A program made the translations under genes and the position numbers. From NCBI RefSeq assembly GCF_003334315.1, contig NZ_QOWR01000005.1: a stretch of DNA of 64,000 nucleotides; one strand, written 5' to 3'. Within the stretch, counting starts at the first letter, position 1; the number at the start of each line of letters is the position of its first letter. Source of the stretch: Escherichia coli. GTDB lineage: Bacteria; Pseudomonadota; Gammaproteobacteria; Enterobacterales; Enterobacteriaceae. The notes beneath the pieces were generated by a model. The model ran no database searches, was not told the DNA's origin, and saw only the letters and a program-made list of their open reading frames with translations. Positions 63,058 to 64,000 of the stretch are shown in pieces.

Positions 63058-63810
63058 TCAGAAGTTAAATTTGATGGAGTAGATTATCGCATCCTGGTAA
63101 AAATCTTCGCCCAGTTTGTCATCCGCATATCGATACTGAATCCCCGTAGTAATGTGTGATGTTGCATTCCACCACAGTGCAACTGCGCCATTCAGCCCTT
63201 CTTTACCGCCATTACCCGCTGCATAGGTAGCGTCACGGTCAAACTCGTACTCGTTCCAGTTGGTAAGAGTGAATTTCTCGCTGCCCAGCATAAAGTTGTA
63301 ACCTGCAACCCAGCCGGCGACATAGCCGTTGTCGCCAGTGTAATAGGTTTGATCTGTATAACGCTTAGCAAAGAACGGTTTGAACCACCAACCGCTGCCG
63401 GTGAAATTGTAGCCGATACCGTACAGGAACATATCGTCGTGGAAATTCACGCGATTCGCAGAACCGTAGGTGCCATACGCATGCAAGTAGAGATTAAATC
63501 CGGTGTCACCCAGGTAAATACGGTTGGTATTTTTAAAGGTATAACGCTGCTCGCTACCTGGTTTATTATGGCGACCGTTATAGAAGTTTTCCCAGTCGAA
63601 GAACCCGTACATTTCTCCCCAACTAAAGTTAGCGCCACCTTCAAATTCAAGATAACCAAAATCATCTTTGTGTGATTTGGTCGACGATTTTTCGGTAGTC
63701 CGGCTGGTCCAGTCCAGATAATGCACGCCGATATCTGCAAAACCGCCTTTAAATTCTGCATGAGATACAACAGGTATCGCTAATATAGAGGAAAGTGGTG
63801 ATGCTGCCAA
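63058..63810 (-). CDS. yfeN: Tsx/OmpK-like outer-membrane beta-barrel protein YfeN, 5' end interrupted by IS1
   Basis: 250 aa frame ending in aromatic C-terminus (SIKFNF); ORF-track TTG start and first four to five codons lie inside the IS1 terminal inverted repeat. Confidence 0.65.
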   Translation of the reverse strand: MAASPLSSILAIPVVSHAEFKGGFADIGVHYLDWTSRTTEKSSTKSHKDDFGYLEFEGGANFSWGEMYGFFDWENFYNGRHNKPGSEQRYTFKNTNRIYLGDTGFNLYLHAYGTYGSANRVNFHDDMFLYGIGYNFTGSGWWFKPFFAKRYTDQTYYTGDNGYVAGWVAGYNFMLGSEKFTLTNWNEYEFDRDATYAAGNGGKEGLNGAVALWWNATSHITTGIQYRYADDKLGEDFYQDAIIYSIKFNF

Positions 63811-64000
63811 CTTACTGATTTAGTGTATGATGGTGTTTTTGAGGTGCTCCAGTGGCTTCTGTTTCTATCAGCTGTCCCTCCTGTTCAGCTACTGACGGGG
63901 TGGTGCGTAACGGCAAAAGCACCGCCGGACATCAGCGCTATCTCTGCTCTCACTGCCGTAAAACATGGCAACTGCAGTTCACTTACACCGCTTCTCAACC
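63797..64000 (+). mobile_element. IS1 insertion sequence, left end (partial, continues beyond window)
   Basis: begins with the IS1 terminal inverted repeat GGTGATGCTGCCAACTTACTGAT and continues into insA; recognised from memory of the IS1 sequence. Confidence 0.9.
63852..64000 (+). CDS. insA: IS1 InsA (partial, truncated by window end)
   Basis: GTG start; translation [49 protein letters not shown]... (zinc-finger cysteines). Confidence 0.85.

Follow-up and report, generated by a model that had tools for sequence, protein, structure and literature searches.

The insertion sequence IS1 has been known since the 1970s. An outward-facing -35 box in its inverted repeat forms hybrid promoters with -10 elements in the target DNA, as described in PMC8764528 with reference to Prentki et al. 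1986. The gene yfeN encodes a putative outer-membrane protein of the Tsx family (PMC7797564) and is dispensable: a yfeN::kan mutant from the Keio collection has been used and showed no phage phenotype (PMC8594841). We analysed a 64,000-nucleotide stretch of Escherichia coli DNA (contig NZ_QOWR01000005.1, hereafter called the window) in which an IS1 element at the right end adjoins yfeN within its coding sequence. The positions of all features are collected in Table 1.

The IS1–yfeN junction

The last 204 nucleotides of the window are identical, at 100%, to nucleotides 1–204 of a full 768-bp IS1A copy from E. coli 1008S13, which RefSeq labels ‘IS1-like element IS1A family transposase’. The same 204/204 match is found in six comparator IS1 copies, that of 1008S13 among them. 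A single, perfectly matching copy of the left terminal inverted repeat (IRL) is present in the window; 100 shuffled sequences yielded none. Downstream of the repeat, the GTG start of insA coincides with the annotated transposase start in full copies (locus L003), and the visible codons encode two CxxC motifs, CPSC and CSHC, before breaking off at ...TYTASQ. Full-length comparator copies additionally carry insB′ and a ‘programmed frameshift’ annotation; the IS1 right end occurs nowhere in the window. The element is IS1 of the IS1A type: its IRL, the start of insA and the insA sequence all conform to IS1 as far as the window shows them. A preliminary description of this DNA had read the sequence from about 63797 as the IS1 terminal repeat followed by insA, and had named failure of the region to align with IS1 as grounds for giving up that reading. 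The exact IRL, the full-length alignment of all 204 nucleotides at 100% identity and the insA frame opening at GTG 63852 bear the reading out.

To the left of the break, positions 62001–63797 are 100% identical to K-12 MG1655, and this homology ends exactly at the IS1 end. Because base 63797 (G) fits both IS1 and K-12, the junction is ambiguous by one nucleotide. Native YfeN is a protein of 254 amino acids that begins MKKHLLTLTLSSILAIPVVSHAEFKGG. Alignment to an IS-free allele, the check that had been suggested for locating the insertion point, places the break within the signal-sequence codons, after nucleotide 26 of the native coding sequence. Codons 1–8, two bases of codon 9, the Shine–Dalgarno sequence and the promoter are lost from this side of IS1. 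The earlier statement that the native 5′ end and promoter are displaced goes further than this: both are gone from this side, and they may lie 768 bp away or may have been deleted, two outcomes that are both common at this locus.

What is left is a minus-strand open reading frame of 250 amino acids (63058–63810, TGA at 63058–63060) that starts with TTG and begins MAASPLSSILAIPVVSHAEFKGG. The codons supplied by IS1 convert the native MKKHLLTLTLSS... into MAASPLSS.... An in-frame TAA at 63820–63822, nine nucleotides upstream of the IS1-derived TTG, closes the frame, and the TTG at 63810 is thus the sole ATG, GTG or TTG start. These observations agree with the preliminary description, according to which IS1 adjoins yfeN, supplies its 5′ end and leaves it this TTG as its only start.

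Table 1. Coordinates of features at the IS1–yfeN junction and in comparator genomes
Feature	Coordinates	Strand	Basis
IS1 (IS1A-type), nt 1–204 of 768 bp	63797–64000	+	Identity to full copies; truncated by the window end
IS1 left terminal inverted repeat (IRL), 23 bp, GGTGATGCTGCCAACTTACTGAT	63797–63819	+	Exact match
insA 5′ part, 49 complete codons from the GTG at IS1 nt 56	63852–64000	+	Stop-free translation
Promoter-like CTGCCA-16-TATGAT, reads into insA	63804–63831	+	Consensus scan, 9/12; also in the full IS1 of L003
Weak terminator-like hairpin and T-run within IS1, on the yfeN-facing strand	63923–63937	-	Scan
Predicted hybrid sigma-70-type promoter: -35 TTGGCA (63810–63805, in IRL), 17 bp, -10 TATATT (63787–63782)	63782–63810	-	Scan, 10/12
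Native-derived yfeN, last base of codon 9 to TGA stop	63058–63796	-	100% identical to K-12 MG1655
IS1-derived 14 nt, TTG GCA GCA TCA CC, first 4 2/3 codons (MAASP...)	63797–63810	-	ORF list and native N terminus
Ser-His-Ala codons, presumed signal-peptidase site SHA|EF, retained	63757–63765	-	-3/-1 rule, inferred
Predicted 9-bp target site GAGGAAAGT	63788–63796		Inferred from the junction; comparators show 8–9-bp duplications
Junctions, K-12-equivalent	Window 3897; X14-3 3893; 2023CK-01509 3896; HL15 3896		
Junctions at the putative hot spot, own coordinates	Window 63788–63797; L002:4893; L011:3396; L018:2896		
Truncated yfeN called intact in three comparator genomes	L002:4159–4902; L011:2659–3402; L018:2159–2887		

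Expression and export of the chimeric reading frame

Native YfeN matches the Pfam family Channel_Tsx (PF03502) over residues 34–254 (model positions 2–244 of 244, E = 1.7e-43), and the window reading frame is identical to it from native residue 10 onward. Changes are confined to the N terminus, where the chimeric sequence (MAASPLSSILAIPVVSHA) contains no lysine or arginine, compared with two lysines in the native n-region; the absence of a basic n-region after MAASPLSS had been noted beforehand and is confirmed by this count. The chimera also lacks LLTLT, five residues of the native hydrophobic core, and the score of the best hydrophobic stretch of 12 residues falls from 2.23 in the native protein to 1.77. 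Judged by a count of features only, the chimeric N terminus departs from a Sec signal peptide in having no basic n-region and a shortened core, with the SHA residues kept. The N-terminal sequences relevant to signal-peptide prediction are MKKHLLTLTLSSILAIPVVSHAEFKG and MAASPLSSILAIPVVSHAEFKG.

The strand that reads out of IS1 into yfeN carries a sequence with the predicted layout of an IS1-generated hybrid promoter, in which the -35 element lies in the repeat and the -10 element lies in the target at a spacing of 16–18 bp. The scan scores consensus matches only, and at the threshold used chance alone would produce 1.8 sites per kb. The outward TTGGCA is located 8 nucleotides from the IS1 end, its 17-bp distance from the TATATT of the target is optimal, and the IS1 right end carries an analogous TTGGAG at an equal distance from its tip. 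The -10 hexamer falls in yfeN codons 12–14 (native numbering), and from this layout the transcript is predicted to start near 63775, downstream of the TTG. Indeed, the TTG ‘start’ is itself the first three bases of the -35 hexamer. RNA made from the hybrid promoter consequently cannot contain the TTG or encode the chimeric start, and a promoter downstream of the sole start codon cannot restore the protein. Further along the frame, a GTG at codon 29 and then an ATG at codon 67 could serve as starts, but initiation at either would give no exported protein.

The 20 nucleotides that precede the TTG pair with the 16S anti-Shine–Dalgarno sequence at -0.2 kcal/mol, compared with -5.9 kcal/mol for the native start. 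A consensus scan of a complete IS1 revealed nothing else that resembles a promoter on the outward-facing strand. A terminator-like hairpin does lie on this strand, although one such site against 0.8 expected from shuffled sequences is weak evidence. IS1 is polar in both orientations, which agrees with the hairpin and with the lack of a further outward promoter. On the opposite strand, the promoter-like site that reads into insA occupies the position of IS1's own promoter, which is known to lie partly within the IRL.

Taken as a whole, the locus is very probably the product of an IS1 insertion in the yfeN signal codons that leaves a null or near-null allele. In the proposed sequence of events, an E. 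coli strain that is phylogroup-A-like and not K-12 would have acquired an IS1A-type element by transposition into the signal-sequence codons of yfeN, so that the IS1 left end came to adjoin the position after nucleotide 26 of the native coding sequence. The body of yfeN is severed from its ATG, Shine–Dalgarno sequence and promoter, and the TTG that it now has is essentially devoid of a ribosome-binding site. RNA from TTGGCA-17-TATATT would begin inside the signal-sequence codons and give no exportable protein, such that the hybrid promoter would yield at most a non-coding or internally initiated yfeN transcript. The resulting allele is predicted to supply little or no YfeN, which is dispensable and presumably an outer-membrane channel of the Tsx family.

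The preliminary description had proposed that yfeN is either inactivated or driven by IS1 read-out transcription. Sequence features support the first outcome and disfavour the second: because the TTG is inside the -35 box, because no ribosome-binding site precedes it and because the scan of IS1 showed no further promoter-like site facing outward, inactivation appears much more likely than IS1-driven expression. It is quite improbable that the chimera is still functional, with a read-through RNA that includes the TTG at 63810 and a short signal that exports a wild-type mature YfeN. In favour of function are a reading frame that is uninterrupted after the TTG, a mature part that matches K-12 at 100%, and the retention of both the hydrophobic stretch LSSILAIPVV and the SHA|E cleavage site. 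Signal peptides that lack basic residues may keep partial function, and TTG starts without a Shine–Dalgarno sequence can be used at a low level if read-through RNA from within or beyond IS1 reaches them, and both facts count against a completely null allele. Yet the TTG lies within the only promoter-like site of its strand and lacks a Shine–Dalgarno sequence, full IS1 offers no other outward promoter-like site and presents a terminator-like hairpin on the outward strand, and both n-region lysines are gone. RefSeq does call analogous chimeras intact yfeN genes in X14-3, 2023CK-01509 and HL15, but by our reading of the sequences these calls rely on ATC or ATA starts and are weak evidence of function.

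IS1 at the yfeN–xap locus in other genomes

The yfeN gene of other E. coli strains is also disrupted by IS1, although none of the papers in the library searched connects IS1 with yfeN. The same element interrupts the same gene as in the window in X14-3, 2023CK-01509, HL15/SF10, 3PT and HCP30S3_I2, and further cases among complete E. coli genomes are AF44, LR-24, EC24, LH13-b and WP2-W18-CRE-03. The junctions of the element were mapped in 18 complete genomes with an IS1 copy in or beside yfeN. These 18 loci represent 17 independent events: 10 are simple insertions flanked by 8–9-bp duplications and 7 are deletions or rearrangements. Within the yfeN coding sequence itself, 7 events are simple and 3 are not.

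This comparison bears on what lies beyond the right end of the window's IS1. The split of 10 simple events to 7 others sets a prior that leans towards simple insertion, in which case the IS1 right end would probably be followed by the GAGGAAAGT duplication, a 35-nucleotide native 5′ stub and the promoter. Simple transposition would thus give an IS1 end of ...AAGTTGGAGTCATTACC, then GAGGAAAGTGTCAGAGTTAAAAGATGTTTTTTCAT, then the xapA spacer. The alternative, which we regard as a substantial though lesser possibility, is an IS1-adjacent deletion or rearrangement that extends toward xapA–xapB. Here the junction would have arisen by IS1-mediated adjacent deletion or by recombination between IS1 copies, and the yfeN 5′ end, the spacer and perhaps xapA–xapB would be lost or moved, or foreign DNA would come next. 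Events of this kind make up 7 of the 17 independent comparator events, and some start very close to the window junction. A 263-bp deletion in X14-3, which reaches the xapA ribosome-binding site, begins 4 bp from it, and a 2,431-bp deletion in 2023CK-01509 begins 1 bp from it. The xapAB genes are also deleted in PK6, 2017.02.04CC, HNSQ2209 and FDAARGOS_944 (five genomes with 2023CK-01509, 2.0–2.4 kb), and in WP2-W18-CRE-03 the IS1 is followed by dfrA17 and intI1. Against this, 7 of the 10 insertions inside the yfeN coding sequence are simple and have 8–9-bp duplications. The consequence for yfeN is the same with either structure on the far side.

Several of these loci show further changes. In WP2-W18-CRE-03 (L009:3332–6035), the class 1 integron genes directly follow the IS1 in yfeN and replace the remainder of the gene; here IS1 borders a resistance region in the chromosome. 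The yfeN gene of CFSAN061762 (L006:619–2583) is split by the IS5-like element ISKpn26, and this genome also carries IS1 in the yfeN–xapA spacer, at the same site as in 1008S13 (duplication TGGATTAA). A second cluster of IS1 left ends lies just upstream of the xapA start codon (L007, L014, L015, L016 and L011; K-12-equivalent positions 4138–4164 and 6190–6485 in L001). Four of these five have IS1-adjacent xapA–xapB deletions with differing right end points, and L011 removes xapA–xapB from the yfeN side. The xanthosine phosphorylase and transporter genes have thus been lost repeatedly, in different lineages.

Four independent junctions, including that of the window, fall within 5 bp in yfeN codons 9–12 (K-12-equivalent 3893–3897, L001). 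They comprise both orientations and different IS1 variants, and the stretch has a G+C content of 32%. If the 18 mapped events were placed uniformly, four junctions in 5 bp would arise with a probability of about 0.0009, a figure that comes from a post hoc test. IS1 target choice is known to be non-random, and yfeN codons 9–12 look like a local IS1 target hot spot. Across the whole 765-bp coding sequence, about 11 independent IS1 insertions were counted against about 10 expected, where the expectation spreads 63,996 chromosomal IS1 places uniformly and is a crude estimate that ignores clonality. There is thus no whole-gene excess of IS1, and selection for yfeN loss is unsupported. A more far-reaching interpretation holds that codons 9–12 are a true hot spot determined by sequence or structure and, taking in the recurrent xapA–xapB deletions beside it, that selection repeatedly removes the yfeN–xap nucleoside-uptake locus, perhaps acting against YfeN as a phage or colicin receptor, a role served by its paralogue Tsx. 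We consider this unlikely.

The exact junction of the window was found in no other genome. A 121-nucleotide query spanning it was searched in the 5,426 complete E. coli genomes of RefSeq without recovering it, and the only single-piece match, in X14-3, lies 4 bp off. An exact 37-nucleotide junction pattern gave 0 matches in GTDB species representatives and 0 matches in JGI metagenome contigs, and an exact look-up of the 250-amino-acid chimeric protein returned no record. At least six complete genomes are listed, with the top bit score, as 100.0% identical to the 24.8 kb that precede the junction in the window, and one of these, Combat13F7, was inspected directly and has intact yfeN and xapA. 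The absence of the junction from complete genomes, together with the intact yfeN of Combat13F7, indicates that the insertion is recent and private to the source strain. A frameshift in xapB is annotated in Combat13F7 and ECZP248 (L012:2044–3296 and L013:4842–5150), both of which are listed at 100.0% identity to the last 24.8 kb of the window, and this frameshift represents further decay of xap genes in the lineage.

Uniqueness of the junction could also be a sign of misassembly, in which a wrong join at one of the repeated IS1 ends would hide a yfeN gene that is really intact. IS1 is multicopy, at a median of about 10 places per E. coli genome, and repeats are classic points of mis-assembly. 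However, the break occurs exactly at nucleotide 1 of the IRL, as in true transposition and unlike a random mis-join, and the four independent junctions within 5 bp identify the site as a real IS1 target. We regard a mis-join as barely credible.

An origin of the window from K-12 was considered and rejected, as identity to MG1655 is about 98.3–99.1% over most of its length and both CPZ-55 and a yfeS segment are missing. More specifically, identity to MG1655 is about 98.3–99.1% over 6406–49533, 97.4% over 49534–51241 and 99.98% over the last 12.5 kb, a pattern that suggests a recombination boundary near 51.2 kb. Near 31195–31217, the window has no CPZ-55 prophage between eutA and eutB, unlike K-12 MG1655, and the eut operon is uninterrupted. 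A 958-bp segment with yfeS that is present in MG1655 is missing at 51241/51242. In addition, a 142-bp stretch at 40328–40469 forms an inverted match of 88.7% to sequence beside yfeS in K-12 (L005:1716–1857) and is probably a REP-type repeat.

The IS1-truncated yfeN genes are handled unevenly in current annotation. Those with junctions near the 5′ end are listed by RefSeq as an intact ‘outer membrane protein OmpK / Tsx family protein’ of 242–247 amino acids, with ATC or ATA starts that, by our own reading, are located in or beside IS1. By contrast, mid-gene insertions in yfeN are flagged as pseudogenes. Because automatic annotation tends to call such chimeras intact, comparisons of gene content can miss the loss of yfeN.

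Comparison with known systems

The allele is an ordinary, strain-private IS1 disruption of a non-essential gene, and the biology involved is already known. For the strain, the likely consequence is the loss of a Tsx-like outer-membrane channel whose gene lies beside the xanthosine genes xapABR. Of modest use are the observations that the IS1 -35 element and the apparent start codon are mutually exclusive, that annotation can hide losses of this kind, and that IS1 has a putative local hot spot. Where an IS1 end provides what looks like a start codon, caution is called for, given that here the promoter and the start codon exclude one another.

Compared with the IS1 elements of the IS1A/IS1R type in E. 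coli and Shigella, the visible 204 of 768 nucleotides show no difference. The native protein matches the whole domain of the Tsx/OmpK family of nucleoside-specific channels (PF03502); the window yfeN differs from that family in lacking the native start and export signal. Relative to other IS1-hit yfeN alleles, none of which has the exact junction of the window, the orientation, the IS1 variant and the fate of the far side differ. In the IS1 hybrid promoters that PMC8764528 describes, such as that activating afaA in ST131, the element is inserted upstream of an intact gene and the gene is activated. The site in the window, by contrast, is inside the coding sequence, and its promoter is predicted to fire downstream of the only start codon.
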